From assembly GCA_030602265.1 (NCBI GenBank), contig JAUWAB010000012.1, forward strand, positions 5,923 through 69,922: a stretch of 64,000 nucleotides of DNA. The letters run 5' to 3'. The stretch is from Prolixibacteraceae bacterium. Its GTDB lineage: Bacteria > Bacteroidota > Bacteroidia > Bacteroidales > Prolixibacteraceae. Each line of letters begins with the position of its first letter. Position 1 is the first letter of the stretch. The notes beneath the pieces are model-generated. The model was not told the origin of the DNA and did not search any database. It saw only the letters and a program-made list of their open reading frames with translations. The translations under genes and the position numbers were made by a program. This document shows, piece after piece, positions 8,245 to 25,100 of this stretch.

Positions 8245-10734
8245 CTATTTTATGACGGTGGTTGAAACATTATCTGCAGACTGTACATCCCCGGAAGCAT
8301 CGATTTTTAACTGTACCAGACGGGCAAGCATTTCGATCTGGCTTTTCAGTTCGTTCATCTCCTTCTGGCTGGCCGACGACGCCACCAGCTCATCTTTCAG
8401 GAGCCTGTTCTCTTTTTCGAGGGCTTCCACTTTGTGGTTCAGCTCTTTAACTGCCTGAAGCAGGACCGCTGTAAAGCCATTGTAATTGACTGATTTAAAG
8501 CCATCGCTGCCGGTTTTCACCAGGGCAGGGAACTGGGCTTCCAGCTCCTGGGCAAGCAGGCCGATCTGCTGGTCGGCAGAGAAATTCTTTTCCGGGTATT
8601 CCTCTTGTTTCCAGAAATAGGAATATCCGCCGAGTGATTCGATTTTATTTAAAGTATTGCCGCTTAATGGCTGGATTTCTTTTTTGAGACGCTCATCGGA
8701 ATTGTAGCTGTTGGTTCCGGAGCCCTCGATATCACCATTGACCGTCAAAGTTCCGTTGACCTCAGCTCCTGTAACCATTTTAAACGGTCCGCTGCCATAC
8801 GTTCCGAAGCTCGTTAGGGTAGTTGTTTCACCGGTGCTGCTGACCAGGGTTAAAGTACCCCTTTCACTTTCTTCATCGGGCCAGGAAGACATATTTATTT
8901 TAACTTCGTTATCTTTTCCCAGCATTTCAAACCACGGAATATCTGCATCTTCCCAGGTTTTGCTGCCAATTGAAAAGTTGGTGGAGCTTGGGCCCCTTAA
9001 TTCAAAATGCCCTGAACTACCCCCTTCTCCTACTGTTGTTTGCATGTAAACCCGGCTCTGTCCGCTTGCATCATCAAGCGCCACATGAGGGTTAGTTCCG
9101 CTCAAAACAAGCCGGCCCGTTTCACCATCGGCACCAACCAGCCCCAGGTTTATTCTTTCCGTATTGGATTTATCGAAAAATCCTGCCTGGGCATGGGAAC
9201 CGTGGAGCGTTAGCATACCAAAATCACCATTTCCCCAGTCCTGTGTGCTAAGGACGCCTGTTCTTTTAAACGGTTCAGGAGAATTGGCCCCAAAAATTTC
9301 CATCATCCCCTGCAGGAGGGAGCTGTTGTAATTGGTACTGCGTAATGTTAATCCCCTCTGCCAGGTGGCGTTCGACAGTGCTAATCCATCGGGACCAATT
9401 ACGGCACGATTTTCATCCTGGCTGGTCAGCGTAATATAACCTGCGTTGATCCTTGAGCTGACGCCATCTTTGGAAAACAGGTTAAAATAGCCGTTCTCAT
9501 GAATATCGTTCGAGGCTGACATTTCCGCAATCACATTATTTTCTGTTCCCTTCATCACAAAGTAGGGAAGATTGGGATTCTCCTGGCTTTTATTGCCTAA
9601 ATAGATATTCTCAGATTCCGGACCATTCAGGTAGAGGTTACCTGCATTGCCATTACCATTCATTTCGGCACTGTGCTGATTTTCGGGTGTAATTAAAAAA
9701 ATCCCTCGCTGATCTACCAGGGTTCTGGTATTATCCTCTCCAGACAGCGTGATGTTTCCTCCGTGAGAATTGTCACCCTCATTCGTACCTTTAACCAACA
9801 CATATTCCTTCCAATCAGGGCCGTTAACCGAAAAATGATGGGGTGTAATGCTCGACTTGTTGCCATAGGAGTCCTGAAGTATGATCACACCTCTTTCTTT
9901 TTCTTCGCCATTCCCCTGATACTTTGCTCCTGTCAGTTCAATAATCTGATTACTTGTTGAACCGAGCATATTTATCCTTGGCATATCGGGATTCTCCCAA
10001 TGGCGGCTCCCGATTTCAAAATTGGTACTGTTGGGCCCCCTGAGTAAAATGGTGCCCGAGTAACCCAGATTGCCCCAGTTCTGAGACATCATCTGTGCAT
10101 TAAAAACACTCCCGTTCCTGAACCAGAGACCTTCGGATCCAAAGCCGCTCATAGGCTGATTGTTATGCGAAACACCAAAGCCACCGGGATTGAGCACCAT
10201 ACGGGTCCCGCCGTTTGAGGTAATACTCATGTAGCCATCCTCGACAGTGGAACCCGAGACTTCATAATTGTTTATCCCCATAGACACCCGCTGGCTGTTG
10301 GCTTCGGGCGTTAATCCGAATAAACCGACGAAAGGCAAATCACGGTTTTGCGATAACAAGGTTGCATATAGGCGAGAACTCCCGGCACCCCTGGAGTCTA
10401 TCCCAACAGAAGGTGAGGGAATGGGTTTGTACAATGTAACCGGAGACAACGCTACATTACCAACGGAAATCTCCATCTGCCGTTCATCGGTTCCGTCGAA
10501 GATATTGCCCGGAATAGGATTGGTGCTTCCCAGTACAATAAAATAGAGACCATCTGTTATGGCTACTTCATTGTGCGTTTCACTCCACTCCAACGCTGGA
10601 ATTGAAACGGTTATCGCCCGGGTTCCATTGACAGGAACCCCTTCCTCTATTAATTTTCCCTGAAAAGGGAGCTTTTGTCCCTGCACTGAAAGTGCCAGCA
10701 AGAATAACACAGAAAGTAAATAAAATTTTCTCAT
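8245..10734 (-). CDS. Secreted tail-fibre-like repeat protein with a C-terminal peptidase S74 / intramolecular chaperone domain.
   Basis: It has a signal peptide (LLALSVQGQ) and internal repeats (LRGPNSTNFEIGSRHWENPDMP, LNGPESENIYLGNKSQENPNLP, LRGPSSTNFSIGSKTWEDADIP). The C-terminal stretch SDERLKKEIQPLSGNTLNKIESLGGYSYFWK...GLLAQELEAQFPALV...NYNGFTAVLLQAVKELN is followed by a coiled coil. The gene lies 6 nt upstream of the T9SS gene. Confidence 0.8.
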   Translation of the reverse strand: MRKFYLLSVLFLLALSVQGQKLPFQGKLIEEGVPVNGTRAITVSIPALEWSETHNEVAITDGLYFIVLGSTNPIPGNIFDGTDERQMEISVGNVALSPVTLYKPIPSPSVGIDSRGAGSSRLYATLLSQNRDLPFVGLFGLTPEANSQRVSMGINNYEVSGSTVEDGYMSITSNGGTRMVLNPGGFGVSHNNQPMSGFGSEGLWFRNGSVFNAQMMSQNWGNLGYSGTILLRGPNSTNFEIGSRHWENPDMPRINMLGSTSNQIIELTGAKYQGNGEEKERGVIILQDSYGNKSSITPHHFSVNGPDWKEYVLVKGTNEGDNSHGGNITLSGEDNTRTLVDQRGIFLITPENQHSAEMNGNGNAGNLYLNGPESENIYLGNKSQENPNLPYFVMKGTENNVIAEMSASNDIHENGYFNLFSKDGVSSRINAGYITLTSQDENRAVIGPDGLALSNATWQRGLTLRSTNYNSSLLQGMMEIFGANSPEPFKRTGVLSTQDWGNGDFGMLTLHGSHAQAGFFDKSNTERINLGLVGADGETGRLVLSGTNPHVALDDASGQSRVYMQTTVGEGGSSGHFELRGPSSTNFSIGSKTWEDADIPWFEMLGKDNEVKINMSSWPDEESERGTLTLVSSTGETTTLTSFGTYGSGPFKMVTGAEVNGTLTVNGDIEGSGTNSYNSDERLKKEIQPLSGNTLNKIESLGGYSYFWKQEEYPEKNFSADQQIGLLAQELEAQFPALVKTGSDGFKSVNYNGFTAVLLQAVKELNHKVEALEKENRLLKDELVASSASQKEMNELKSQIEMLARLVQLKIDASGDVQSADNVSTTVIK

Positions 10735-11231: not shown

Positions 11232-11771
11232 TTAACACAATTGTTTCCTTACATTCTCCAGGATGTTTTCAAAATCCTTATGTAACCGGGCATCCAAAAT
11301 ACCCCTTTCCTCTGAAAAATTTTCAAAAAACACGGGTAATGAAAATTGACCGGCAATTTCGGCACCATGTTTCGGAAATCTTCTTACAGCACTTTCCAGG
11401 ACCAGTTTACCCCCTCCCTGGCCTGTGGAAGTGGATAACAGCAACAACTTTTTCCCTTCAAACAATTTGACTTTAAGACGTGAAGCCCAGTCAAACGTAT
11501 TTTTGAAGGCGGCGGTATAACTGCCGTTGTGCTCAGCCAGTGAAATAATGATCAGGTCAGCAGGTTGCAGTTTTGCGAAAAACCCGTGCACCATTTGAGG
11601 GATACCCTCTTCCTTTTCTTCATCCACGGAAAAAAGAGGTGCAATAAAATCATTGAAGTCCAATACCTCAACCGAGGCATGTTCAAACCGGGATGCAGCG
11701 TAGGCTGCAAATTTTTTATTGATGGATGCTTTACTGCTTGAGGCACCAAAAGCTACAATATTCATCTCCAT
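11232..11771 (-). CDS. NAD(P)H-dependent FMN reductase family oxidoreductase.
   Basis: 179-aa ORF. The N-terminus NIVAFGASSSKASINKKFA and the later SLAEHNGSYTAAFKNTFDW fit the flavodoxin-like FMN reductase pattern. Confidence 0.75.
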   Translation of the reverse strand: MEMNIVAFGASSSKASINKKFAAYAASRFEHASVEVLDFNDFIAPLFSVDEEKEEGIPQMVHGFFAKLQPADLIIISLAEHNGSYTAAFKNTFDWASRLKVKLFEGKKLLLLSTSTGQGGGKLVLESAVRRFPKHGAEIAGQFSLPVFFENFSEERGILDARLHKDFENILENVRKQLC

Positions 11772-11903
11772 TTTTTTTTCACATGGGAATGTCGTAAATT
11801 TATTAGTTAAATCAATTAAAACAAGTACGTTATGAAATGTTTTCTCACCTGCCAGTAATGGTCTTGGATCATCAGCCGGATAATCCGGAATCAGGAAAAG
11901 ATT

Positions 11904-13016: not shown

Positions 13017-13256
13017 GATCTTCCGGATTAAATATTTTCAGTTCTAATGATTGATACGGGCCAAAGTTATATTAAAAAGTTCCGTAAACTGCCATCAGGT
13101 CCAAAATTCCGGCCGGAAACAGTGGCATGAATGGCCGTAACATATACCGGCAAACAGGATGTGAGGTTCTTATACGACGAAAAAACATCTGCCTGAAAAT
13201 TGCCGCTCAAAAGGCAACCTTTAAGCCGGGAAGTTCGTCATGTAAGAAAAACAACT

Positions 13257-13691
13257 ATGAAATACCTCTTGTGTATATTTTGGGCTTTGTCCATTTCCGC
13301 CTTATTCGTAAGCTGTGACCAGGAGAAGGATGTCAATATGCTTACGGAATGTGATGACATGGTCCTGGTCGACAAAAAAGCCTGGGCGGATGCCCCCAAT
13401 GACCACCTTACCATCCAAAGCGCTGAAATTACCGGCAACTGCCTGAAAATTACCTTCGCCTCCAGCGGATGCGATGGCAGAAACTGGGAAGTCAAACTGA
13501 TAGACTCCGGAACGATACTCTATTCAAACCCTCCACAACGAAATCTCAGACTTTCCTTGAAAAACATTGAAATGTGCGAGGCTTATATCGGGAAAACCCT
13601 CAGCTTCGACATCAGGGAATTGCAGGTAAGCAGCAATAAAGTACTGCTTAACCTGACCAATTCAGGGAAGCAGATCCTGTATCAATACTGA
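13257..13691 (+). CDS. Hypothetical lipoprotein.
   Basis: The in-frame ATG at 13257 gives MKYLLCIFWALSISALFVSC (lipobox). The track start at 13200 is a TTG with a non-signal extension. I recognise no family. Confidence 0.55.
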   Translation: MKYLLCIFWALSISALFVSCDQEKDVNMLTECDDMVLVDKKAWADAPNDHLTIQSAEITGNCLKITFASSGCDGRNWEVKLIDSGTILYSNPPQRNLRLSLKNIEMCEAYIGKTLSFDIRELQVSSNKVLLNLTNSGKQILYQY

Positions 13692-13772
13692 ATTCTCCGG
13701 CAAAAATTTTTCCGTGGATAGAAAAAGCAGCCGATTATCCTTTACCCGAACGCACTTCCCCCTTTATTACCG

Positions 13773-15929
13773 TCAGCTTTTATTGCTCTCCTGATAGTGA
13801 TAAATATTTCCGGATTCGGGTACCGGCCGCTCCCCGATAATATACAGGGCATCTGCAGCTTCAGCCAGGTGGGGCCTGTGGGTAATCAGCATGATGGCCA
13901 TCTCCCCTTTCAGTTTCCGGAGCAACTCAATGACAAATGTTTCTGTACGTTGGTCCATAGCCGCAGTTGCCTCATCAAGCAGTAAAAGCCTCGGCTTCCT
14001 GTACAATGCCCTGGCGAGGGCAATGAGCTGGCGTTGTCCGCCCGACAGGTTGCCGCTGCATTCACTGACCAGGGTGGCATAACCCTGCGGCAGTTCCTGA
14101 ATGAATTCATGAAATCCCAATTGTTTGCAGAACAAAATCACCTTATCCTGATCCGCCTCTTCACCAATGGCAATATTTTCCAGGATGGTAGCATTGAAAA
14201 GGCTGACATGCTGTGGCACCCAGCCGACCAGACTCCGCCATTCCTTCGTATGAATTATGCTCCAGTCAAGACCGTTAAGGGTAATCGAACCTTTTTCAGG
14301 CTGATGAAACCTCAGCAGGATATCAAACAGGGTGCTTTTCCCACTTCCCACCGCTCCGGAAATGGCCAGAATCCTGCCTGTCGCTGCTTCCAGGTTAATG
14401 TTATGGAGCAGAAGGCGCTTCCCGGGGAATCTGAAACAAAGACCTTTTACCGACAGTCTGAAATCAACTTCCCGACTGAGCTCCATGGGAACGAATGGCT
14501 GGGCAGGATCATATTCAGGATCGACCGATGAAAACTCAAACATCCTGTCAAAGGCAATTCTGGCCTCCTGGAACTGTATGGCCGCCATGGCGATCCCGAT
14601 GGCAGATGTACCCAATGATCCGGCAATGGTAATGATGGCCATCATCTGGCCGATCATCATCTTTCCCTCAAAAACCTGCCAGGTTACCCATGCAATAACC
14701 ATAACCATCCATACTGAACTGCCAAGAGAAGTCCAGAAACTAAACCTTGCCGTGACCAGTCCAAGCTGGTAAACACATTGCATATAGGCACCATAAACGG
14801 CTTTGGCAATCCGTGAAAACAGATTTTCATTATTAAATGATTTAATGGCCTTAATGCCCTGCAAGGTATCGATGAACCTGCTTTCAGAGGATGCATAAGA
14901 TTGCATGACCTCCCGTTGCGATTGGATGATCTTCTGGTTGTAAAACCAGGTAACCACTCCAAAAACCGGGATAACCATTAGGCTGATCAGGCCGGTGGTG
15001 ACGGAAACGACAGCAATGTATACCCATGAGGTGATGACAATCAGCAGATCGATGACCACCTGGCTGCTCAGGGCTACCACTACCCTTTGTATACGCTGTG
15101 TATCGTTGAGACGGGCGATCAGGTCACCGGTAGTGGTACTGTCGAAGAAAGGTTTCGGAAGGGTAAGGAGTTTACCGAAGAAAACGTCCGTTATCCGGAT
15201 ATTCATATCTTTAGCTGTCCGGATGAGGAAGGCAGTCCGGATATACGACACAACCGCCCTGGCCACCAGGACCAGGCATAAGATGGCCAGTCCGGGCACA
15301 AGTTTGTCATGGTATCTTCCGGGGATAAACTCATCCAACAGTTTTTGGGTGAAGATGGCAGTGGCAAGCCCCAGCACGGAGATGACAAGCCCAATCACAG
15401 CAGCAATGGCCAGTACCGGGAGGTCAGGCCTGATCAGCCCCATAAACCATTCACGCTTTCGCTTCGCTTCAGCCTTGCTGGTTTTGAATTCAGGACCCGG
15501 GACCAACTTCAGAAGGGCTTTACTTTTCCATAAGTCATCCAGCTCACTTTCAGGAATTTTCACTACACCCCGGGCCGGATCGCCAATGAGGAATTTTCCG
15601 CCGGAAAAACCGTAGCACACTACAAAATGCTCCAGTCCTTCGGGTGTTACGGTATGCAGGATCACGGGCTCGTTTAATTCCTTCAGGTTGCCGGGTCCCC
15701 CCTCATAGCCACCCGCATCGAATCCCAGGCTGCGGGCAGCCTGACAAAGGCCCAGCATACTGGTACCATTAAGGGTGGTGCCGCTCATCGACTGCAGTTT
15801 CTGCTGGCTGACAGATCCGCCATGATAACGGATAATGGAAGCCAGACAGGCGAGTCCACAATAGAAGCGGCTGTGCTGACGGACAAAAGTTTTCCTGATT
15901 TTTTTTGATTCGAGCCTGGTTTTCGACAT
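13773..15929 (-). CDS. C39-peptidase-domain ABC exporter (double-glycine bacteriocin cleavage/export).
   Basis: The N-terminal papain-like domain carries QHSRFYCGLACL (Gln/Cys), EHFVVC (His) and IGDPARG (Asp). It is followed by a six-helix exporter TMD, Walker A GAVGSGKST, signature LSGGQRQ and Walker B LLLLDEAT. I take the ATG at 15929 (MSKTRLESKK) as the start. Confidence 0.95.
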   Translation of the reverse strand: MSKTRLESKKIRKTFVRQHSRFYCGLACLASIIRYHGGSVSQQKLQSMSGTTLNGTSMLGLCQAARSLGFDAGGYEGGPGNLKELNEPVILHTVTPEGLEHFVVCYGFSGGKFLIGDPARGVVKIPESELDDLWKSKALLKLVPGPEFKTSKAEAKRKREWFMGLIRPDLPVLAIAAVIGLVISVLGLATAIFTQKLLDEFIPGRYHDKLVPGLAILCLVLVARAVVSYIRTAFLIRTAKDMNIRITDVFFGKLLTLPKPFFDSTTTGDLIARLNDTQRIQRVVVALSSQVVIDLLIVITSWVYIAVVSVTTGLISLMVIPVFGVVTWFYNQKIIQSQREVMQSYASSESRFIDTLQGIKAIKSFNNENLFSRIAKAVYGAYMQCVYQLGLVTARFSFWTSLGSSVWMVMVIAWVTWQVFEGKMMIGQMMAIITIAGSLGTSAIGIAMAAIQFQEARIAFDRMFEFSSVDPEYDPAQPFVPMELSREVDFRLSVKGLCFRFPGKRLLLHNINLEAATGRILAISGAVGSGKSTLFDILLRFHQPEKGSITLNGLDWSIIHTKEWRSLVGWVPQHVSLFNATILENIAIGEEADQDKVILFCKQLGFHEFIQELPQGYATLVSECSGNLSGGQRQLIALARALYRKPRLLLLDEATAAMDQRTETFVIELLRKLKGEMAIMLITHRPHLAEAADALYIIGERPVPESGNIYHYQESNKS

Positions 15930-15993
15930 AATTAACGGGGGTTTAAGGGTTAACAAAATGAGGCTGATGACCAATTTGGGGAGTGAAAACGTT

Positions 15994-16200
15994 TTACTTT
16001 CCGGAGAAATCTGGAACCTTCAAAGGAAACTGGTAACTGGCAGTACGGTTCAAAGGACCTGCCCGGATCAGGATGGAGTCCTTATCCGGAGTTATCCGGG
16101 TAACATCCGACTTAACGATGGTACCCCGGTCACTTCCGCCGTGCTGGCCGGATATCAGGCCAGCAAGCCATAGTCCGGCAATAAAAAAGATACGCGTCAT
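15994..16200 (-). CDS. Small exported protein of unknown function.
   Basis: The ATG at 16200 lies 2 nt after the stop of the thioredoxin gene. The N-terminus MTRIFFIAGLWLAGLISG looks like a signal or anchor. I recognise no family. Confidence 0.45.
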   Translation of the reverse strand: MTRIFFIAGLWLAGLISGQHGGSDRGTIVKSDVTRITPDKDSILIRAGPLNRTASYQFPLKVPDFSGK

Positions 16201-16202
16201 AA

Positions 16203-16775
16203 TCAAGGGTTTGAGGGGTTATTTATTTCAGATTCGGAAGGTATTTCTGCTGACTTCCTCATCAGCAGATTCAGGATATTCTCGGGATGAGTCTCACCCA
16301 AAAAATGTCCGGCTAATTTTTGGTCAGTTCCATAAATGTATACGGAAGGCAGGATTGCCCTTCCGAAAGTTTCCCTGAAGGTCTTATGTTGGTCTAACAG
16401 GAACTGAATATTATCGATCTCGTGCAAATGATACTCGTTAACAAACTGTTCCACACGCTGAAAGGAATCATCGGGGGTTACCATGACCACCTGAATCCCG
16501 GCAAACTCAGCAGCATAGGAAGCCATATAGCCTGCCCCGGACCGGCAATAGTCACATTCAGGATGAAAATACTTAACAATCATTGGCCGGGAGTGATCAA
16601 AACTCCTGAGATTAACCGGATCGCCATACAAGGAAGGGAAGGAGACATCGGGAATGGTCTGAATGCGGATTTCCGCGTTCCGCCGCGCGGCATACCCCTT
16701 CATTACCTTAATGGATAAATATGCGGCACAAGTCAGCACAAGCAATCCAATAATGAGTTTTCTAATTCCGTACAT
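16203..16775 (-). CDS. Membrane-anchored thioredoxin-fold thiol-disulfide oxidoreductase (TlpA/redoxin-like).
   Basis: It has an N-terminal TM segment (LIIGLLVLTCAAYLSI) and a thioredoxin-like domain with the CxxC motif in KYFHPECDYCRS. Confidence 0.8.
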   Translation of the reverse strand: MYGIRKLIIGLLVLTCAAYLSIKVMKGYAARRNAEIRIQTIPDVSFPSLYGDPVNLRSFDHSRPMIVKYFHPECDYCRSGAGYMASYAAEFAGIQVVMVTPDDSFQRVEQFVNEYHLHEIDNIQFLLDQHKTFRETFGRAILPSVYIYGTDQKLAGHFLGETHPENILNLLMRKSAEIPSESEINNPSNP

Positions 16776-16780
16776 GGCAC

Positions 16781-17425
16781 TCAGTTTAGACTCAGGTTAA
16801 TAAACAATACCACAAGAACCCAGAGGAGGAGGCCACTGCCATAGGAAATACCGGTCAGCCGGAACGCCTTTCCGAAGCTCAGGGGCCTTTCAGAGGATTC
16901 CTGGTTTACAAGATCCCGGATCAACCAGGCCAGCACAAGAAAATAGCCCAGTTCGAAAAGATTCAGCAGGCTCAGCGGGTAGACCAACAAGGTGTCGAAA
17001 GATTCCCCGGGGAAGAACTCCAAAACCGATAAAGGCTGAAACTGAAGGTCGTGAAGGGTGCTTACCTCCCTGAAAAAAATAAGGATGATCAGTTTAGCGA
17101 GGGCAGAGAGAACGAATACAAAATCAGCCAGCAAGGCAATTTTGAAGATCCGGCTAAACCGGGCAGGCAGATCAGCAAAAAACAATCCGGTGTATAAACA
17201 AATCGCTGTAAAAGAAACACGGAACAAAACAAACACCGGGAAAGATGCATAGCCAACCCACCTCATTTTTTGTGATGTTTCAATAATCCTTTCAATCTGG
17301 GAATGCGATACCTGCTCCTCGAAGGAAGAATAAAAAATATGGTCTCCAAAATATAAATATTGCATGGAGGACTGAATCAATGTATAAAAGAATACAATAA
17401 TGAGGAATAGTTTATAGGTTTTCAA
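16781..17425 (-). CDS. Polytopic membrane protein (about 5 TM), family not recognised.
   Basis: 214-aa hydrophobic ORF. It starts at a TTG whose product begins with a TM-like MKTYKLFLIIVFFYTLIQ. The next ATG would be at 17365. It lies 5 nt upstream of the thioredoxin gene. Confidence 0.55.
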   Translation of the reverse strand: MKTYKLFLIIVFFYTLIQSSMQYLYFGDHIFYSSFEEQVSHSQIERIIETSQKMRWVGYASFPVFVLFRVSFTAICLYTGLFFADLPARFSRIFKIALLADFVFVLSALAKLIILIFFREVSTLHDLQFQPLSVLEFFPGESFDTLLVYPLSLLNLFELGYFLVLAWLIRDLVNQESSERPLSFGKAFRLTGISYGSGLLLWVLVVLFINLSLN

Positions 17426-17451
17426 TTGATTTGGGGATTTTTAGATTGCTA

Positions 17452-17700
17452 TTACTTTTTCAGGTACAATTCCTTAAACCACTTTACCTGGCCATATCCA
17501 AGAAATAACTTCCATCGGTCATTCCTTTTGATAACACCTTTCCTGATAAGCCTTCCGCCATCCAGGAGCGGTCGGTACACAAAAGCAAATACCAGGAGCG
17601 AAATGAAAAACCAGCGGTTTAAGCCCAAATATAGAAGCGTGATCATCAGAAATAAGGGCAATACAATTGCCAATAAATAATATGTAATCAGATTTTTCAT
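17452..17700 (-). CDS. Small 2-TM membrane protein with a basic tail (immunity-like).
   Basis: 82-aa ORF with an ATG start. It has two hydrophobic helices followed by a Lys/Arg-rich C-terminus. Confidence 0.5.
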   Translation of the reverse strand: MKNLITYYLLAIVLPLFLMITLLYLGLNRWFFISLLVFAFVYRPLLDGGRLIRKGVIKRNDRWKLFLGYGQVKWFKELYLKK

Positions 17701-17743
17701 AAGAATAACGTTATTTATTTTTAATGGCTTAGCGTGTAAATGG

Positions 17744-17914
17744 TCACTTATTCTTCTTTAACTTAAATTGTAGCCAGGTCAGCAATGCCAGAATGGTAAA
17801 GTTGATTCCTATGATCAATTGAAACCACTCATACTTTAACTGGACAAATCTTATGAAGAAAAATACAGCAGCGATAAGTTCAAGGGTGCTTATTATCAGT
17901 ATTACTTTTTTCAT
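17744..17914 (-). CDS. Small 2-TM membrane protein, 56 aa (below the ORF-track cutoff).
   Basis: My own translation is MKKVILIISTLELIAAVFFFIRFVQLKYEWFQLIIGINFTILALLTWLQFKLKKNK followed by a stop. It has the same size, topology and basic tail as its neighbours and fills the otherwise empty 17701-17957 gap. Confidence 0.45.
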   Translation of the reverse strand: MKKVILIISTLELIAAVFFFIRFVQLKYEWFQLIIGINFTILALLTWLQFKLKKNK

Positions 17915-17957
17915 AAACTAGATCATAGTAAAAAGCGAATTCAATAATAACATGGTA

Positions 17958-18143
17958 TCATGAGCCATTTATATTGTTTCTCCTTATCCGGATTGCCCTT
18001 AGGAAAAACATTACGGAACATACTATAATAAGAAATGCCATAAGCCACTCATGGTATAGTACTTTGAAATCCAGAAAATAAAGAATGGAAAGAGCTGCCA
18101 TGGCAAGCAATAAGAAATTAAAAATCATGTTAAATGTTCTCAT
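17958..18143 (-). CDS. Small 2-TM membrane protein (immunity-like).
   Basis: 61-aa ORF with an ATG start. It has two hydrophobic helices and the basic tail RAIRIRRNNINGS. Confidence 0.5.
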   Translation of the reverse strand: MRTFNMIFNFLLLAMAALSILYFLDFKVLYHEWLMAFLIIVCSVMFFLRAIRIRRNNINGS

Positions 18144-18180
18144 AATTAAACTTCTTTACAGTTTTCTATTGCACTGATAT

Positions 18181-18387
18181 TCAATTATTATCCTTTCTTT
18201 TAATGGTACAGGACCGTGATTTCCTGTTTTTGCGAAATAAGAATAAGACAACCGAAGAGATCAATAAAATTCCCAGAATCGATATCACCAATGCGTATGA
18301 CAATGATACGTTTAATAATCTGGGGATAAAAACAAGCATCATGAAAACACCGGCTACGACATGAAATACTGCGATTAAGTTCTTCAT
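18181..18387 (-). CDS. Small 2-TM membrane protein (immunity-like).
   Basis: I take the ATG at 18387 (MKNLIAVFHVVAGVF...) as the start. The track start at 18399 is a GTG. It has two helices and the basic tail FRKNRKSRSCTIKRKDNN. Confidence 0.5.
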   Translation of the reverse strand: MKNLIAVFHVVAGVFMMLVFIPRLLNVSLSYALVISILGILLISSVVLFLFRKNRKSRSCTIKRKDNN

Positions 18388-18482
18388 TTCTTTACTCACA
18401 ATTTAATTTCAATAAAAGCAAGATATTACAGCACCCGCCAACACCTTAAACGAACCACTATAAAACAATACCCATTCTGCAT

Positions 18483-18914
18483 TCATTTCAGGTCTTCCTC
18501 AATTTTAACACCATTTTCCAGAAAATAATCCAGTACATTCCCTTCAAGGTTATCCTCTTTTAATTTCAGACGAACTTTTGAATCCCCGTAAAAGATCCAT
18601 AAAATGAGAAAATTCTTCTTCTTCATATACTTAATCTGGCGTATATCTGACAGTGGAATTTTTTCAGGATACTTATTCCAAAAGAGATGCAAAATAAGAT
18701 AAGCTATCCAGACCAGCGCCATGACGATCCATAAAACAGTCCTTATCTGGTCTTTTAATGAGTCACCCCAAAGCAAATTTACTACTATCAATAACAGAAT
18801 GGCAATAGAAAACAGCCTCCTTTCTCTCCTGAATATGTCAGTGAAATTGAAGAACTGCAAATCATTCTGGTCAGCGACGATTACGCCGTTATTTACTGTT
18901 TTAAATATCCTCAT
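18483..18914 (-). CDS. Membrane protein with a central 2-TM hairpin and soluble flanks, unknown function.
   Basis: The ATG at 18914 gives MRIFKTVNNG. The track start at 18986 is a TTG that overlaps the ABC ATPase gene. The central helices are LFSIAILLLIVVNLLW and VLWIVMALVWIAYLILHLF. Confidence 0.5.
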   Translation of the reverse strand: MRIFKTVNNGVIVADQNDLQFFNFTDIFRRERRLFSIAILLLIVVNLLWGDSLKDQIRTVLWIVMALVWIAYLILHLFWNKYPEKIPLSDIRQIKYMKKKNFLILWIFYGDSKVRLKLKEDNLEGNVLDYFLENGVKIEEDLK

Positions 18915-18975
18915 ATATTTGGGTTTTTTAAAGTGTATGCCACAAAATAATCCTTCATGTATAGATTTAATCGCT

Positions 18976-19695
18976 TTAACTTTCAATATTGAAGTATGTT
19001 TTCAATCGGGATAGCGACTCTGGACTATTCTGAAAATCATCCATGATTCTGCCCGACTCAAAGAGGATCACCCTGCTGCAAATCTGTGAAACAAACTGAA
19101 GATTGTGACTAGAAATAATAATGGTCGCTTTCTGTTTTACAACAGATTCACGAAGGATTCGAACCAGATCGTGTTGTGATGCAGGATCGAGAAAATTAAA
19201 TGGTTCATCCAGAATGATCAGTTCTGTCTTAAAAAGAACTGCACCCAAAATACCCAACTTGTGCTTGTTCCCATCCGAAAGGCTCCTGATAAGCTTACTC
19301 TCTCGTATGATATTAAATGTAACAAACTGCCTCATTCTGTCCAGGCACTCCTCAATAGCCGCTAAAGACAAGCCTCTCATCTGACCCAGCAGACGAATAT
19401 ACTCGCCGGGGGTCAAATAATCAATCAGGAAACTTTCATCGATATAGGCTCCGGTCTTATGTTTCCAGTGATCGGATCGGTGAACATTTTTACCCCTAAA
19501 AAAAACACTACCACTATCTGGAAGTAATAAATCAAGAAGTAATTTCAGAAAAGTAGTTTTACCCGATCCATTGTTACCAACGATACCGATTAACTCATTA
19601 CTGAAGATATCCAGATTCATCTGATCTATGGCAGGAATTCTTCCGTATCTCTTGTTCAGGTTTTTTATTGAAATGAAAGGATCACTTGCACTCAT
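18976..19695 (-). CDS. ABC transporter ATP-binding protein.
   Basis: It carries Walker A GIVGNNGSGKTT, a signature-like LSDGNKHKLG and Walker B LIILDEPF. Its start overlaps the stop of the upstream membrane-protein gene in an ATGA (19692-19695). Confidence 0.93.
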   Translation of the reverse strand: MSASDPFISIKNLNKRYGRIPAIDQMNLDIFSNELIGIVGNNGSGKTTFLKLLLDLLLPDSGSVFFRGKNVHRSDHWKHKTGAYIDESFLIDYLTPGEYIRLLGQMRGLSLAAIEECLDRMRQFVTFNIIRESKLIRSLSDGNKHKLGILGAVLFKTELIILDEPFNFLDPASQHDLVRILRESVVKQKATIIISSHNLQFVSQICSRVILFESGRIMDDFQNSPESLSRLKTYFNIES

Positions 19696-21119
19696 GAGTA
19701 ACTTTGCATTTTTTCGTATTTAACTGAATTATAGACCAAACTAAGAAAACCTTTGATGTATATGCGGTTCAGACCAAATAACACCAATCCGGTAGCCATG
19801 ATCAGATAATCAACATAAGACCGACTGACCATATGACTCACCATGATTAATATTCCTACCGGCAAAACACTTATCAGGACCAAACATACCATTTGAAGAA
19901 CATTACTACCCTGCGCATTGGCAAAAGAATTTCTGGACAAATCCATCCTTTGGGAGAATTGAATCCCAACCAATAATATCAAAGGATTACAGACCCCCAA
20001 AACCATGGAAACATTGCCCAGAAATCGGATCAAATCAGGTATGTTTTCCGCCAGCACAGGTATGCAAACAGAGGAGCAGACCAGGGTAAACAGGGTGAGC
20101 AACCAATATTTAGCCGATATATACCCGGTAATACTTGTCTCCGAAGCATGCAAGAACGGGTAAATACCCATATCTATTGAGAAAAGATGATAACCTATTG
20201 AAAAAGCGGCTGCACCGTTCAGGCATGTCAGGAAGTAATAAGTAATTAAAGATTGATTATCACTTGTTTTAACTATTAATACCCATGAAAGAATGATCAC
20301 CAGCATAGTTGAAAAAAGCATGGAACGGGGCCTGGAATTTCTTACGATTGATTTATAAATCAACAACGTATAAGGAAGATACAACTCAAGGGATTTGTTT
20401 TTGCCTTGACGGGTTTCAATTGTAAAATTGGATTCCGGGTGGAAATAACGGTAAAGGTATGCCCTTACTACAACCAAATCCAATACGATGACAGAAGATA
20501 TTAACAAAATCAGCATACCGGAATTCCCTTCAGACATTCCGGACATAAATGACCAGCCTGGAATACTCAGTGATATGATTCCCCAAAATATCAGCATGAA
20601 AATTATGGAGATTACCATTGCAGCAGAACGGTGAACCATAAGCTTTGCAATTACGGCAACATAATCCAATAACAATACCAATAATATCCAGGAGAAATAA
20701 TCCAGCAACATAAGACCACCACTCTGTTCACCCACCAGAAGAGGAATAATCATGAGTATCCAAATCAGGTTAAAATGGTTAACAACTGATTTCCAATGTA
20801 CAAACCGGATGATGGTTTCTTTCTGAAGTGGTAAAACATTGAATGGCGGTATTACCGGATTAGTTATTGTCCTGAATAATATTCTCAATCCAAGATCCAG
20901 AGCAAATAAGGTAAGCCAATACTTGTTGATCAATTCCCGGACTAACCCGCCTAAAGCCAGTGGTCCGGAATTATTGTCTAAGAACAAAAACACGTAATAC
21001 ATGGCCTGCAGGTATATAAATGCGACTACCAGGAATTTGGGCAATGTATTCGTGTAAAAGCTTTGATCTCTGTAAACGGCAAGAATGTTCAACCGTGTCA
21101 ATATCAGAATTTTACTCAT
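19692..21119 (-). CDS. Polytopic membrane protein, probable permease partner of the adjacent ABC ATPase.
   Basis: 475-aa ORF that is very hydrophobic throughout (10 or more predicted helices by eye). It is translationally coupled to the ATPase. I did not recognise the family with confidence. It may be a DUF-type ABC-2-like permease. Confidence 0.65.
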   Translation of the reverse strand: MSKILILTRLNILAVYRDQSFYTNTLPKFLVVAFIYLQAMYYVFLFLDNNSGPLALGGLVRELINKYWLTLFALDLGLRILFRTITNPVIPPFNVLPLQKETIIRFVHWKSVVNHFNLIWILMIIPLLVGEQSGGLMLLDYFSWILLVLLLDYVAVIAKLMVHRSAAMVISIIFMLIFWGIISLSIPGWSFMSGMSEGNSGMLILLISSVIVLDLVVVRAYLYRYFHPESNFTIETRQGKNKSLELYLPYTLLIYKSIVRNSRPRSMLFSTMLVIILSWVLIVKTSDNQSLITYYFLTCLNGAAAFSIGYHLFSIDMGIYPFLHASETSITGYISAKYWLLTLFTLVCSSVCIPVLAENIPDLIRFLGNVSMVLGVCNPLILLVGIQFSQRMDLSRNSFANAQGSNVLQMVCLVLISVLPVGILIMVSHMVSRSYVDYLIMATGLVLFGLNRIYIKGFLSLVYNSVKYEKMQSYS

Positions 21120-21144
21120 AATATTCCGAATTACATGGGTAAGA

Positions 21145-21173
21145 GGGGATGGTTGTTTGCGACAACCATCCCC
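21145..21173 (-). promoter_or_regulatory. Perfect 12-bp stem-loop immediately downstream of the bacteriocin precursor gene.
   Basis: The sequence is GGGGATGGTTGT-ttgcg-ACAACCATCCCC. It lies about 15 nt after the precursor stop and about 25 nt before the next start codon. No U-tract follows on the transcribed strand. Confidence 0.55.
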
Positions 21174-21188
21174 GAATCACGCTATCCA

Positions 21189-21371
21189 CTAATCCAACAG
21201 CAAATAACACCCCAACATGGTTAAACCGCCCACAATGGGATTTAATCCGGATGCTATACCGGCAGCAATTGCATAAGCAGCGCATCCGCCATGCTGTGAC
21301 CAGCTGTGGTTGCTTGTCCACCAGCCACCACCATACATATTTTCCATGGTCTCAATAGACAGTGTTTTCAT
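21189..21371 (-). CDS. Double-glycine-leader class II bacteriocin precursor (cerein 7B/lactobin A-like core).
   Basis: The translation is MKTLSIETMENMYGG|GWWTSNHSWSQHGGCAAYAIAAGIASGLNPIVGGLTMLGCYLLLD. The leader has L(-12), M(-7), M(-4) and GG. The core is Gly/Ala-rich with two Cys. The gene heads a same-strand cluster that ends in a C39 ABC exporter. Confidence 0.8.
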   Translation of the reverse strand: MKTLSIETMENMYGGGWWTSNHSWSQHGGCAAYAIAAGIASGLNPIVGGLTMLGCYLLLD

Positions 21372-22025
21372 TTAATTAAGATTTGAGGTTATCCAGCCAC
21401 CACCCTGCCAACCCTCCCCCGGCCTATCGGGGAGATCAGCTGTTCCCACAGTCGGGCCATTGAAATACACGCCGGCTGACGGCAAAATATCTCAAAAACC
21501 TTCTAACTTCGCACCGGGCTTCATACGAAGCCTTCGCCTCCCCGGGCCGGGAACAAAATCGCAGCGTGAACCCCGGGGAGGCTCTTACACGAACTTATTC
21601 TTTCCAATAAATACCAGATTTCTCATCATATTTCAGTTCAGGGGTCATCCATTGTTAACCGGGGGTTACCAGTTTTTCAACAGTATAATTCTACAAGGAT
21701 AATAAATATTTTGTTTATGTGCAATACTCAGGTGCTCCAGGGGTCAACTTTTTTTATAAAGCTTATAATAAACTGAATAACAGGTGTTTAAATAGTTAAT
21801 CTTCAACCAGCATGAGTCTTCTACCTATCACCGGATTTCCTTTCGCCGTCGTTCTGCCGGAATGTACCTAAACCCGAATATTCACCTTCAAAGTACAGGC
21901 CTGCTGCCAGAACAAACCAGATTCTCTACCCTGATTATCGCCGGAAGGATCCCATGTGGTCAGATCTAAGGTATTAACTGTGGACCAATCCAAGGACAGG
22001 GTCTGATGCACCCCCAGCCAATTTC

Positions 22026-22141: not shown

Positions 22142-25100
22142 CTACTCTTCAATTACGACCCTGAACCCGACATTAAATACCTTCTGATAATCCCGGTAAG
22201 GCAACCGGAAACTGGACGTCGCCCTGTACGGCCTGTCGTACCATGAACCTCCCCTGACTACCCGTTTCCCGATTTGGGTAACATCGTTACGCCCGTCATC
22301 TTCATTGTAGGGATAAGGCCTGTAGGCAGTCCGGGTCCACTCCCAGACATTCCCATGCATATCGTTCAGGTCAAAATAATTGGCCCTGTAGCGACCAACA
22401 CTTTCCGAAACAAAACCGCCATCATTGAAGAGTGTATCCCGCGGGATCCAGTCATCGTAAGGCCCCGGATTATCAATAATCCTGGTACTTTCATAGTTTT
22501 TATGGGCTGTACAGGCTGCATACTCTGCAAGCCTTTTGTCGCCCAGGTTGGCAAAAACTGAATAATCAGCTCCGAAATTTCCGAAAGAGTATGGGGTGTC
22601 CCTGCCGGCACGACAAGCCCATTCCCATTGCCCCTCAGTTGGAAGAGTAAACTTCCTTCCTGTCTTCTCACTCAGCCATTTACAGAAGTCCATGGCCTCC
22701 TTCCACGATATGCGTACTACCGGCTGATCGGGATGGTTCAACGGATAACCCTTTCTGCCAAACTGGTACCCATGCCGGTGTTCAACCCTTGAATCGTGTT
22801 CCGGATCGAACAGTGCATAAATCCGGTTGGTAATCTCAAACCGGCCCATCCAGAAAGCATCCACTTGTTGTTCGGTCCGTGGCATTTCATCCGGATGATC
22901 TGTACTCCCCATAAGGAAAGTTCCTCCGGGAATTTTTACCATATCAATGGAAACACCATCAGCAAGCGGGATGGAAACCTGATACTGTCCAAGGCCGATC
23001 TGCCTGTTCTCGATGACATTCCGATCCACCGGCCAGCCCGGTATGGCATCGACTCCCTTATTTAATGACCGTTTTTCCGGCATCTGCGGAACAATTCCTT
23101 CAGGGATTTCAGGCAAATCCTCGAGATCCGGTTCAATTACGTTAAACATTTCTGCATAGATCTTCCGCAGCCTTCGCGACTCTTCTGTTCTGTGATAGGT
23201 GCTGATATCCGATCTCCGGCCATGGAAGGGCGCATTCATATCAATCCAGCAGGCCAGTTTTTCGATTTCCTCCGGATGAAGTTGCACATTGTGATGGCCC
23301 TTGTTCAGCATCTGCATCAGCTCAGTCTGGTCGGCGTGGACATCCATGGGAACCAGCATATCCATGTCGCTCTCGATCCCGGGCCGGCGCACATACCGGT
23401 GCAGGTTGGCATAGGATACTGAGAAATTGCCGCCATACGAAGGATCAGCACGGCCGCTGATCTGGGATTTCCAGTCGGTAATCCGGGCAGTACCCACCAG
23501 GTTAATTAAATCCGGCCGCGTCGTATTATGGCATGAAACACAGGCCCTGTCCAGGATGGGCTGAACTTCATGGGCAAAACTGAAGCCCCTTGCCTTCCCG
23601 AACCACTCTTTGATTTCCTGCGGCTTTTTGCGGGCAGCCATACTCGGCCTGGGCGGCGGGACCCGGTACTTGTCCTCGTGGCAGCCAATACAGGAGAGGT
23701 TCTCACCCGGCATGGCCGTGAACCACGACCGCATCACCTGCAGAGCTTTCCCTTCGGAATCCAGAGGCTGGACGGCGATGGGTGTATTGGCAGGTACGAT
23801 AAACATGGCTGAGCCGTCAGTCTCGACATCGACGGTTCCAAGAATACGCTTTATATCCCACGGACCATCCATGCCTATGGTCCCAAGCAGTCCGCCCTGC
23901 CCCCAGGGACTGAAGCCGTAAGAAATTATCCGAAGCTTTTTGACTTCACCTCTTGGAATTCCTTTCAGGCCCCCGCCCTCATAAACATCCTGCATAAATA
24001 CGGATGCCTTATCGCTTGCCAGGTTTACCCTGTCGGGGATAACCGGAGGCGTGGGAACAGCTTCGGCCAGGATGGGTGCGATAAATGCACTGCCCTCACT
24101 TTCTGTGATCAGCGACATATTTCCATAAATATCCACCAGGTAGAGCCCCCATAAGGAAGTCGGGGTGGCTTTCACAGATACAATAAAATATTTTTCACTC
24201 AGCGGAAGGGGCTCCAGAAAATGGGGCCATACGCCGTCAGGCAGCCTGTCGCGCTCCAGCGGGACCACCTTCTTTCCGTAATGCGGAATTTCCGTTACCA
24301 CACCCTCTGCCTCTTTCCTCCCTAACACCGGGTCGATTACCAGCATGCGACCGCTGCGGGAAATGCTGTGGTGACCTCCGGCAATGCCCACAATGGCGGT
24401 ATTGTGGCCCGGAATAGGCCGGGCATTGAAAAAAGCCGCCGGAAAATAGGAGTTTGAACCGTAATAGGCTTGCTGGGTCGTTCCGTCGGGATTCATGCTG
24501 AAGAGTATCCTTGAGTTGGAATGGGGAAGATCTGCGTACTCCCAACGTTGATACAAAATCTGACCATTATTCATCACCACCGGGCCCCAGTTGCTGTCCT
24601 GGTCGAAGGTGAGCTGCCGGGTCTGACCTGTTTTCGGATTGTACAGGAATATGCCCGACATTTTGTTGCCTCCGTCGGTGCAGGGCAGTCCCATAAAAGT
24701 AGCGGTCGAACAAAATATGATCCGGTCGTCGGGTGTATAACAGGCATCGAAACTGTCAAAATCCTCATACGCCGGCGGAGTGATCTGCCTGATCAGGCGG
24801 GTGGCCATTTCCATTTCAAAAATATGCCACCTTCCGTTGGTTCCAATGGACGAAAACAGCATTCTGGTGCCACTGAAATGCATTTCCGGATCGGTAATGA
24901 TCATCCCTTTTTTGGGCCTGAACAAGGTCGAAACTGTCTGTTTGTCATTACTCAGGGTGAGTTTGATAAACTCATTATCCCAGTGAGTGGACGGATTTCC
25001 GATTTCAGAATTGTTCTGAAAATTGGAAGGTGCCAGTCCCAGGTTACCGCCCATTACAGACCTGGCGTTCTGACCAAAGTTGCGTTTGATCGCTATGATC

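Follow-up and report, generated by a model that had tools for sequence, protein, structure and literature searches.

A probable bacteroidetocin-type bacteriocin locus in a Prolixibacteraceae bacterium with an additional ABC transporter, small membrane proteins and a conserved leader

What is encoded by the tightly packed genes around a double-glycine (GG) leader peptide in a Prolixibacteraceae bacterium? Positions 13773-21371 of the 64,000-nucleotide stretch analyzed here (contig JAUWAB010000012.1, assembly GCA_030602265.1; "the window") hold a bacteriocin production locus of a kind already known from Bacteroidota, with additions that are not described for bacteroidetocin-type loci: an extra ABC transporter together with small membrane proteins, and, just outside these positions, a conserved leader before the toxin gene. 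As a whole, the region is probably a class II locus for a disulfide-containing GG-leader peptide, built on the bacteroidetocin export cassette, with the ABC module and the small TM proteins protecting the producer.

The locus comprises 12 minus-strand genes (Table 1). The initial annotation spoke of 13, and its own list likewise sums to 12; every reading frame in that list is present on the minus strand where it was placed, and the gaps it put at under about 100 nt measure −4 to 95 nt. Both junctions it singled out are also there as ATGA overlaps—one at 19692-19695 that joins the DUF5687 stop to the ATPase start, and 4 nt (16203-16206) shared by the redoxin gene and the small exported ORF. Purifying selection is evident in all nine genes for which the related locus L007 has a comparable counterpart (dN/dS 0.14-0.38), including the 143-, 61-, 82-, and 70-aa ORFs. 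The profile searches that the annotation had proposed recovered C39 exporter, AhpC-TSA/Redoxin, ABC, and DUF5687 domains and yielded no bacteriocin model for the peptide.

Table 1. Features of the bacteriocin locus, in order of transcription (window coordinates)
Feature	Coordinates	Strand	Size	Remarks
Conserved non-coding leader/promoter region	21372..21700	-		Upstream of precursor gene; identity to L007
Bacteriocin precursor	21189..21371	-	60 aa	GG-leader peptide
Stem-loop	21145..21173	-	12-bp perfect stem	Directly 3' of precursor stop codon
DUF5687 polytopic permease	19692..21119	-	475 aa	~9-12 TM helices; Pfam PF18940
ABC ATPase	18976..19695	-	239 aa	ABC_tran E=2e-22; translationally coupled to permease (ATGA overlap)
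2-TM protein	18483..18914	-	143 aa	Soluble C-terminal part; to 18986 with TTG start
Putative ORF	18181..18387	-	68 aa	2-3 hydrophobic segments; called by public gene callers
2-TM protein	17958..18143	-	61 aa	Present in L007
Putative 2-TM ORF	17744..17914	-	56 aa	Skipped by public gene callers
Membrane protein	17452..17700	-	82 aa	Present in L007
Core protein	16781..17425	-	214 aa	5 predicted TM helices; position of bacteroidetocin "TM protein"
Membrane-anchored thiol-disulfide oxidoreductase	16203..16775	-	190 aa	CDYC motif; AhpC-TSA/Redoxin
Small exported protein	15994..16200	-	68 aa from ATG, 70 from TTG	
C39-peptidase ABC exporter (PCAT)	13773..15929	-	718 aa from ATG	Three Pfam domains

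How closely does the locus follow the known kind? The precursor, the C39 exporter, and the CxxC redoxin support, at the level of sequence, the earlier proposal of a GG-leader bacteriocin locus. The suggested link to bacteroidetocins holds as well; Coyne et al. 2019 (PMC6671954) described a four-gene cassette with components of the same kinds, namely a peptide, a C39-ABC exporter, a 5-TM protein, and, in most loci, a thiol oxidoreductase. Published bacteroidetocin loci are defined by a leader of 15-16 aa ending in GG and a mature peptide of ~42-48 aa with at least two Cys (PMC6671954). The window precursor begins with a 15-aa leader of similar sequence, MKTLSIETMENMYGG, also ending in GG, and its 45-aa core falls within that size range and carries Cys30 and Cys55. 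The GG and both Cys are invariant across precursor homologues (n=8-9), a motif (AAGIA.G.NP.VGG.T) is common to 8 of them, and dN/dS against L007 is 0.18. Its N-terminus is identical to that of bacteroidetocin A at 9 of 21 positions (pairwise E=2e-4) in an alignment limited to the leader; the core is unrelated to those of bacteroidetocins A and B in pairwise comparison. Bacteroidetocins A and B are cationic peptides with 4 Cys and have BamA as their target (PMC6671954; Matano et al. 2021, PMC8546649), whereas the core here is hydrophobic and Gly/Ala-rich with 2 Cys.

The export machinery fits the same cassette. The exporter combines Peptidase_C39 (4e-28), ABC_membrane (3e-34), and ABC_tran (3e-30) domains in one chain, all above gathering scores; it matches PCAT1 (4RY2) over its full length (E=1e-98), and its catalytic Cys/His/Asp and oxyanion Gln align with the C39 domain of PCAT1. 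It scores 345.2 bits against TIGR01193, below the NCBIfam curated cut-off of 523.85. Judged by its sequence, the exporter is a divergent PCAT member with PCAT architecture. The oxidoreductase, with a single N-terminal TM segment, matches AhpC-TSA (E=5e-10) and Redoxin (E=7e-7) and is ResA-like at E=1e-6, under the ResA model cut-off. The gene between them encodes a small exported protein that public gene callers replace, in its 70-aa form, by an antisense ORF; it is 65% identical in L007 (dN/dS 0.35). Its slot is filled in other loci by a 137-149-aa DUF2059 protein or eroded versions, with which its alignment is confined to the signal peptide, and it probably represents what is left of a degenerated secreted protein of the DUF2059 type.

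The 214-aa protein, which the initial annotation had placed in an immunity-like module, belongs with this machinery instead. Its gene is followed by a redoxin gene in 39 of 40 related loci and then by C39-ABC in 18 of 19, and most of these loci have GG peptides upstream. None of the 188 or more homologues at ~50% identity carries a Pfam family; the protein has one Cys and no conserved Cys, and its AF2 model (pLDDT 79) has no PDB fold match. From its sequence and genomic setting, we regard it as an obligatory 5-TM core partner and the positional counterpart of the Bacteroides TM protein, a likeness of position and predicted TM helices only. The TM protein is needed for bacteroidetocin production in Bacteroides (PMC6671954).

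What, then, is new? The initial annotation had counted the missing HlyD-type and quorum-sensing genes as novel. The absence of these and of immunity genes is not new, because none is reported for published bacteroidetocin loci, and the characterized producers are without immunity (PMC6671954). Domain profile searches found no HlyD/CvaA-type membrane fusion protein (MFP) domain in any of the 12 ORFs, and a weak test with one MFP and one OEP query (phmmer) found neither in the window or related loci. The lack of an MFP, quorum sensing, and a classical immunity gene is shared with bacteroidetocin loci, as are the phylum and, by domain content and predicted topology, the four kinds of component. 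Differences lie elsewhere: an ABC-2-type transporter and small TM proteins part the peptide gene from the cassette, ~330 nt of conserved leader precede the peptide gene, and two related MAG lineages from the environment carry the locus at a conserved place in the chromosome rather than on a gut ICE. Of the claim that the architecture was unmatched, the core cassette falls away; the variant with permease, ATPase, and small TM genes stands, as we found no description of it in the literature searched, including the bacteroidetocin papers.

The permease matches Pfam PF18940 across residues 13-474 (E=7e-38; 131.6 bits against a cut-off of 33; above gathering score) and belongs to a small, divergent subfamily (9 of 568 clusters at E<=1e-30). 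Its AF2 model (pLDDT 85.8) most resembles fused ABC-2-type exporters: the best PDB match, though weak, is the fused permease Rv1217c (Foldseek probability 0.94, TM 0.33, E=0.2, 12% identity), and NosY and CcmB each match half of the model. Like the window pair, the mycobacterial efflux pump Rv1217c-Rv1218c (PDB 8K1N) joins one fused permease of two TMD halves to a separate ATPase, with ATPase similarity at E=2e-24; its phylum and substrates are unrelated. The window ATPase has ABCA-type NBDs, Rv1218c, and NosF as its nearest solved structures and the lantibiotic-protection, DrrA, and GldA ATPases as its nearest NCBIfam models, all under their cut-offs, so that its likeness reaches only the ABC-2/DrrA/ABCA NBD class level.

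Three to five small membrane proteins accompany this pair in the window. Variable small TM proteins fill the interval from peptide to 5-TM gene in other loci of the family, which is where class II immunity genes usually lie and the form they usually take. The 143-aa protein, without a Pfam match, is 84% identical in L007 (dN/dS 0.17) and has homologues in two further bacteriocin loci, L077 and L084. Of the four tandem small 2-TM proteins originally proposed, those of 61 aa (91% identity; dN/dS 0.38 from few differences) and 82 aa (85%; dN/dS 0.21) are kept in L007; the 68- and 56-aa ORFs have no counterpart there or in any other locus compared.

Is the transporter peculiar to this locus? A DUF5687 permease and ATPase separate the peptide from the cassette in the window, L007, L067-L070, L073, and L079 (there split in two halves), while the same slot in L008, L084, and L103 is taken by non-homologous permease(s) and an ATPase. 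Peptide, 5-TM protein, redoxin, and PCAT occur with no ABC module at all in 18 of 24 related loci. Among 50 genome loci found via DUF5687 alone, the cassette is directly adjacent in five, in four gene orders; the remaining 45 have neither GG peptide nor C39 exporter, which is partly the outcome that the initial annotation had named as refuting its idea. The synteny search it called for thus finds the pair beside GG-peptide loci, in a minority of cases and in several gene orders. The neighbors of housekeeping pairs are GldD, LolA/FtsK, NUDIX, and similar genes, and since most pairs occur in such contexts, the DUF5687 family is not bacteriocin-specific. Those DUF5687 proteins that are linked to the cassette do not group together as closest relatives (polyphyletic by score). 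Overall, DUF5687/ATPase or another permease/ATPase pair has repeatedly been recruited into this bacteriocin locus family.

How might the parts work together? The PCAT would cleave the precursor after Gly15 and translocate the 45-aa core through the inner membrane; in the periplasm, the redoxin would make the Cys30-Cys55 disulfide; and the 5-TM protein would be required for production, as in Bacteroides. The permease and its coupled ATPase probably form an ABC-2-type (type V) exporter that, with the 143-, 61-, and 82-aa proteins (and perhaps those of 68 and 56 aa), would keep the producer's inner membrane clear of the hydrophobic Gly/Ala-rich peptide, either expelling or sequestering it, and so protect the cell. 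This self-immunity role is plausible and is modeled on LanFEG/BcrAB-type immunity transporters and small membrane immunity proteins. Like LanFEG/BcrAB of Gram-positive lantibiotic and bacitracin producers, the window locus pairs a separate ATPase with a polytopic permease, its ATPase has lantibiotic protection as its best NCBIfam model, and the transporter would act by removing a membrane-active peptide. However, the ATPase scores far under the cut-off of that family (TIGR03740; 125.8 vs. 309.75 bits), LanE/G show no sequence match to the permease, which is a DUF5687 protein of 475 aa in fused form, and the host is diderm; an immunity function here is putative. The MccV system (CvaAB/TolC and Cvi) offers a Gram-negative parallel, with a GG-leader peptide and PCAT, a core that is Gly-rich, hydrophobic, and closed by a single disulfide, and small inner-membrane immunity proteins beside the toxin gene; its CvaA-type MFP and TolC partner are missing here, and a dedicated redoxin, the 5-TM protein, and the ABC-2 module are added.

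The same transporter could instead serve export or maturation—it might move oxidized peptide from the outer leaflet of the inner membrane or the periplasm toward the outer membrane, or else act on some lipid or envelope component that release requires. Its translational coupling and its place between the peptide gene and the export cassette would suit such a role, as would the envelope genes beside housekeeping pairs and the 5-TM protein, which shows that production depends on membrane factors; passage of the outer membrane is also left unexplained by the lack of an MFP/TolC-like gene in any related locus. We nevertheless consider an export role unlikely: the 18 loci without the module retain the rest of the machinery, and the published four-gene cassette by itself yields activity from E. 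coli (PMC6671954). Moreover, the non-homologous substitutes in L008, L084, and L103 fit accessory protection better than a core step.

It is less likely still that the pair and the small membrane genes adjoin the locus without any functional tie to it, for example as a general envelope or drug-efflux transporter. The 45 DUF5687 loci free of bacteriocin genes, the polyphyly of the cassette-linked proteins, and the putative status of the 68- and 56-aa ORFs speak for chance proximity. Against it, at least 12 independent loci, in at least five gene orders, have the pair directly beside the cassette, a recurrence that by rough, uncomputed reasoning is very improbable under random placement among several thousand genes, and here the genes are tightly packed and co-directional between a precursor and its exporter.

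Could the peptide be something other than a toxin? GG leaders and PCATs serve pheromone export as well, no bacteriocin model picks up the window precursor even when E<=1 is allowed (Pfam/NCBIfam, including Bacteriocin_IIc PF10439 and TIGR03949), and a few related peptides weakly match the ComC and BlpC models. A secreted signal (ComC/BlpC-like) or a membrane-inserted structural peptide is nonetheless very doubtful: 17 of 24 related peptides weakly match Bacteriocin_IIc, 11 class IIb (TIGR03949), and 5 MccV (best E=4e-5 for the first two models, under gathering score); several related loci encode more than one kind of peptide, and small TM genes accompany each; and no histidine kinase or response regulator was found among the 12 genes by domain profile searches, nor are such Pfam families listed for the called genes of L001, L007, L008, L011, and L012. 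A Gly/Ala-rich hydrophobic core of 45 aa with a disulfide, like that predicted for the window peptide, is what class IIb/IIc bacteriocins and MccV typically have.

In the bacteriocin reading, expression would probably begin in the conserved leader, ~250-300 nt upstream of the precursor gene. Conservation over the ~330 nt 5' of that gene exceeds that of coding genes: identity to L007 is 92% over 340 nt, with one 170-nt stretch showing only 2 mismatches, while synonymous sites of the adjoining genes differ by 34-55%. The element has a core hairpin (P1, 11 bp; 21530-21589), a conserved loop, and further hairpins downstream, and it is present in 13 copies across 10 loci, 12 of which precede GG-peptide genes. 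Rfam (release 15) gave no match at gathering score in the whole window and chance-level matches only at E<=10 in positions 21300-21800. The stem-loop that the initial annotation had noted after the peptide gene was confirmed (z=-4.1 against shuffles), and hairpins of unrelated sequence occupy the same position in L007, L068, L073, L012, and L071. Lacking a T-run, the window stem-loop was not scored as an intrinsic terminator in a pattern scan; it probably gives a high peptide-to-machinery ratio.

More tentatively, and with considerable doubt, both additions may be read jointly: the ~200-330-nt element as a new cis-regulatory RNA or promoter-plus-leader for bacteriocin genes of environmental Bacteroidota, and DUF5687/ATPase as an exporter devoted to self-immunity against a membrane-active peptide of bacteroidetocin-like type. 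If the latter is true, it would be the first function for a subset of DUF5687 and the first immunity mechanism in the bacteroidetocin-like toxin family.

Where does the locus stand relative to the bacteroidetocins, to our knowledge the sole characterised peptide bacteriocins of the Bacteroidota? Bacteroidetocin loci are defined by four genes (Coyne et al. 2019, PMC6671954), which encode a five-TM protein, a small peptide, a thiol oxidoreductase, and a double-glycine-peptidase ABC transporter, the peptide having a 15- to 16-aa GG leader, at least two Cys, and a 42- to 48-aa core. Deletions showed every gene but the exporter to be necessary for activity, and sufficiency was tested by cloning the four genes into E. 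coli (PMC6671954). The initial annotation pointed to a bacteroidetocin link, and counterparts of all four components are indeed found in the window locus, including a GG leader, a 45-aa core with 2 Cys, a C39 ABC exporter, a thiol oxidoreductase, and a 5-TM protein as the putative TM component. PCAT1 (4RY2) aligns with the exporter over its full length (E=1e-98), with every residue of the C39 active site preserved (catalytic Cys, His, and Asp, and the oxyanion Gln). The locus resembles bacteroidetocin loci in how it works and most probably belongs with them in a broad sense. Novelty had been claimed partly from the core genes and from genes that are missing; that part does not hold, as the core genes correspond to the known cassette and such absences are normal for the bacteroidetocin family. 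The window differs from bacteroidetocin loci in its peptide core class, in a recruited ABC-2-type transporter with small TM proteins, and in a conserved leader upstream of the precursor gene.

Coordinates and assignments of features in the window and in collected related or DUF5687-bearing loci (L numbers)
Locus	Feature	Position	Strand	Assignment
Window	60-aa precursor peptide		-	No family match in profile searches
Window	475-aa permease	19692-21119	-	DUF5687, E=7e-38
Window	239-aa protein	18976-19695	-	ABC ATPase
Window	Five small hydrophobic ORFs		-	No family match
Window	214-aa protein		-	5 predicted TM helices, no family match
Window	190-aa protein		-	AhpC-TSA/Redoxin, TM anchor, CDYC motif
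Window	70-aa ORF	15994-16206	-	Signal-peptide-like N-terminus
Window	718-aa exporter		-	Peptidase_C39 + ABC_membrane + ABC_tran
Window	Convergent ORF, 163 aa (144 aa as called)	13200-13691	+	Lipoprotein-like
Window	Large protein of tandem pair	22142-25432	-	HZS_alpha, FGE-sulfatase
L001	Tandem large proteins	2030-5638, 5688-8978		HZS_alpha, FGE-sulfatase
Window	Leader	21372-21700	-
Window	Leader hairpin P1	21530-21589
L007	Leaders	9653-9990, 13756-14079
L012	Leader	8569-8632
L064	Leader	4949-5012
L068	Leader	36-99
L071	Leader	2016-2076
L072	Leader	892-953
L073	Leader	2943-3003
L075	Leaders	1628-1692, 5874-5934, 8975-9035
L091	Leader	38-98
L007	Second leader, peptide cassette, and 147-aa gene	13756-14880
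L075	Leader and Cys-rich protein	1628-1954
Window	Post-stop hairpin	21145-21173	-
L007	Post-stop hairpin	10198-10227
L012, L068, L071, L073	Post-stop hairpins			After peptide genes
L064	Protein in redoxin-PCAT slot	7069-7518		DUF2059
L083	Protein in redoxin-PCAT slot	11425-11865		DUF2059
L011	Protein in redoxin-PCAT slot	11381-11794		DUF2059
L063	Triad on plasmid NZ_CP034564.1	43934-51369		5-TM/redoxin/ABC

The peptide comparison, made on peptide sequences, shows that the leaders of bacteroidetocin A and the window peptide are alike (9/21 identical), whereas the window core is hydrophobic, rich in Gly and Ala, and has two invariant Cys, and bacteroidetocins A and B are cationic with four. A tblastn search of plasmids with bacteroidetocin A gave no match. 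We aligned 24 related peptides from the collected loci and searched each against bacteriocin models: 17 weakly matched the Pfam family Bacteriocin_IIc, 11 matched the class IIb lactobin/cerein model, and 5 matched MccV, while profile searches with the window peptide itself matched none of these models. Window-type peptides look membrane-active rather than BamA-targeting.

Are the other genes of the locus real? Twelve co-directional minus-strand ORFs, one fewer than first annotated, lie in 13773-21371; the reported tight packing is borne out by intergenic gaps of -4 to 95 nt, as are the overlaps, two of 4 nt and ATGA type, at DUF5687/ATPase and redoxin/small exported ORF. In the closest relative, L007, the peptide is 78% identical and the flanking genes are identical in kind. 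Nine window genes are kept there with dN/dS of 0.14-0.38, among them the ORFs of 143 aa (0.17), 82 aa (0.21), 61 aa (0.38), and 70 aa (0.35). No collected locus has a counterpart of the 68-aa or 56-aa ORF, and both are putative genes; their place in L007 is occupied by a second peptide cassette and a 147-aa gene. Because L007 and the window differ there, the interval from the ATPase to the 5-TM gene is a variable cassette site. The L007 segment consists of a second leader, a GG-peptide gene (80-aa ORF, MKELSFENMEGINGG...), and the 147-aa gene, which encodes a 2-TM protein.

The locus (window 16000-22000) has a GC content of 0.36-0.43 vs 0.48-0.51 in its flanks, and nonetheless sits between the same neighbour genes in L007, which suggests that it was acquired long ago or that the membrane-protein genes themselves shift the composition. 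In the window lineage and in L007 it is flanked by tandem genes for large proteins (1096 and 1202 aa), each with an HZS_alpha middle domain and a C-terminal FGE-sulfatase domain. Downstream of the PCAT gene, the convergent ORF, whose position is kept in L007, has a weak NigD1/NigD2-family match that falls below the cut-off (E=8e-4).

By topology and synteny, the 214-aa protein is the putative counterpart of the published TM protein. At least 188 homologues were found at ~50% identity, none of the Pfam families covers it, and a fold search of its AF2 model (pLDDT 79) against the PDB returned noise alone (E>=1.9). A DsbB/VKOR-like reoxidase of the redoxin was ruled out as its identity, because the window copy has one Cys and none is conserved among homologues. 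Among 53 loci gathered via this protein, the redoxin gene comes after it in 39 of the 40 cases that could be tested, and the C39-ABC gene does so in 18 of 19; neither an MFP nor an OEP was found among them, a weak test with one query each. The triad also occurs between flanking transposases on a Flammeovirga pectinis plasmid (L063), followed by genes for a GLPGLI protein, a LanC-family cyclase, and a glycosyltransferase, so that this export cassette may also serve modified peptides.

Between redoxin and PCAT, many related loci encode a secreted DUF2059 protein of 137-149 aa, and DUF5687-bearing loci carry eroded versions of 49-102 aa. The window's 70-aa ORF shares with DUF2059 proteins a signal peptide and nothing more, has one of the higher dN/dS values in the locus, and is passed over by public gene callers for an antisense ORF; judged from sequence, it looks like a degenerating remnant.

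What kind of transporter has been recruited? The DUF5687 and ATPase genes are translationally coupled, and the ATPase falls in the ABC-2/DrrA/ABCA class: its top NCBIfam model, a lantibiotic-protection ATPase, scores far below cut-off, and its nearest solved structures are ABCA7/4/1, Rv1218c, and NosF. A profile search of PDB sequences with DUF5687 found no match. The AF2 model (pLDDT 85.8) is closest, with weak scores (prob 0.94, TM 0.33), to Rv1217c, a fused two-half ABC-2 permease whose partner is Rv1218c (PDB 8K1N). NosY and CcmB each match half of the model, and in the collected locus L079 the gene is divided into two halves, which fits a fused two-half design.

An exhaustive HMMER search, used in place of a word-indexed search that gave only 6 proteins, found 568 DUF5687 clusters and placed the window protein in a small divergent branch (9 clusters at E<=1e-30). 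A scan of genome contigs with the window protein as single query found no relatives, and a 29-sequence alignment was too diverse as a seed; a 7-sequence main-family alignment worked, giving 50 genome loci. The window DUF5687 scores in 41 of these loci as well, and in 28 of the 41 a search with the window ATPase picks up an ATPase adjacent on the downstream side. A C39 exporter lies within 10 kb in 5/50 only. DUF5687/ATPase pairs thus do occur without a GG peptide or C39 exporter, which counts in part against the claim of the initial annotation by its own standard, and DUF5687 is not bacteriocin-specific. Sampled neighbours in loci lacking C39 include GldD, LolA/FtsK, NUDIX, CNNM, and similar genes, a tentative sign that the DUF5687 family may have a general role in the envelope. 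Among these contexts (L013-L062), CNNM-GldD occurs in L014, with neighbours of equal size in L015, L018, and L023, and FtsK-LolA in Prevotella L058, with equal sizes in L052, L054, L055, L059, and L062; NUDIX and Rce1-like genes are further neighbours.

The part of the claim that stands is the link to the cassette: on rough reasoning, the DUF5687/ATPase pair is tied to it beyond chance. In all five C39-bearing genome loci the triad is directly adjacent, in four gene orders, and a GG peptide lies upstream of DUF5687 in three (L027, L050, L056). Among loci found via the 5-TM protein, DUF5687 and ATPase sit between peptide and 5-TM gene in L007, L067-L070, L073, and L079; apparently non-homologous permease(s) and an ATPase fill this slot in L008, L084, and L103, the split permeases of L008 and L103 having no Pfam match. 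Where at least 2.8 kb upstream of the 5-TM gene was available (n=24), 4 had DUF5687+ATPase, 2 another ABC pair, and 18 neither; in loci with no ABC pair, small proteins with 2-6 TM helices that vary from locus to locus occupy the slot. Two more loci (L077, L084) encode homologues of the 143-aa protein, and similarity among the small 2-TM proteins is composition-level alone (E>=0.003 in a tiny database).

In class II bacteriocin and microcin loci, immunity genes are accessory, vary between loci, adjoin the toxin gene, and encode membrane-embedded proteins (PMC12219008). By this analogy, self-protection is favoured as the role of the ABC pair and small TM proteins; for the producer, a hydrophobic peptide of GxxxG type would plausibly be a danger to its own inner membrane. 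The main rival, raised because passage across the outer membrane is otherwise unexplained, is that the pair serves export or release. The bacteroidetocin study found no immunity protein and describes the producers as self-sensitive (PMC6671954). Our literature searches found no bacteroidetocin-type locus described with an immunity transporter and, in full text, no paper mentioning DUF5687.

How might the cassette be controlled? The 770-nt spacer preceding the precursor gene does not evolve neutrally. Its leader is 92% identical to that of L007, including a 170-nt stretch with 2 mismatches, vs synonymous-site differences of 34-55% in adjacent genes, and is thus more conserved than the adjoining coding genes; the second L007 copy, before the second peptide gene, is 90% identical over 326 nt. 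Hairpin P1 has an 11-bp stem, AGCCUCCCCGG...CCGGGGAGGCU, and a loop of 30-36 nt containing CACGC and UUUGUUCCCGGC; one or two more hairpins follow 3' of it, and most copies also have a long hairpin whose end lies ~30-40 nt from the ATG. A pairing between the loop and a downstream stretch through CCGG is proposed. All 13 copies, in 10 bacteriocin loci, are on the coding strand, with P1 ~160-240 nt upstream of the start codon, and 12 precede MKELSFEKME..GG peptide genes. One L075 copy instead precedes a gene for a small Cys-rich signal-peptide protein (MKKIVITGILLLTICLASFA...), which may be a different secreted toxin under the same control element.

A search of Rfam 15 with the leader gave no match, and a P1 covariance model found no copies beyond those building it in 974 kb that included 24 DUF5687 genome loci. 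In the alignment 96.8% of cells pair, vs 28-53% with partners slid. Compensation is limited to one C-G to U-A change in P1 (L064) and few in P2, including A-to-G changes keeping U·G pairs; with 1-2 compensatory pairs, P1+P2 covariation is not significant, shuffles often reaching the observed values. RNAalifold on the full alignment recovers P1 alone, because MAFFT misaligns the 3' half. The case for an RNA structure is suggestive rather than established, and a promoter-plus-operator cassette is equally plausible; a sigma-70-type promoter scan is uninformative in Bacteroidota.

The stem-loop proposed after the peptide gene has a perfect 12-bp stem (z=-4.1), and a strong hairpin lies directly 3' of the precursor stop codon in all loci checked, the window and five others (12-15 bp, z -3.3 to -4.9). 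With unrelated sequences and, in most, no clear U-run, these hairpins are an architectural feature, probably an attenuator or mRNA stabiliser.

The locus is most probably a member of a large environmental group that is sister to the bacteroidetocins and has at least 188 clusters of the 5-TM protein. At the place expected for immunity genes, a sizeable minority of its loci encode an ABC transporter and small membrane proteins. If the immunity role is true, it would explain how such peptides are produced safely and would give a function to some members of DUF5687, a family so far uncharacterised. Should these readings hold, the conserved leader would offer a concrete handle on regulation and a search key for unannotated bacteriocin genes in Bacteroidota metagenomes.
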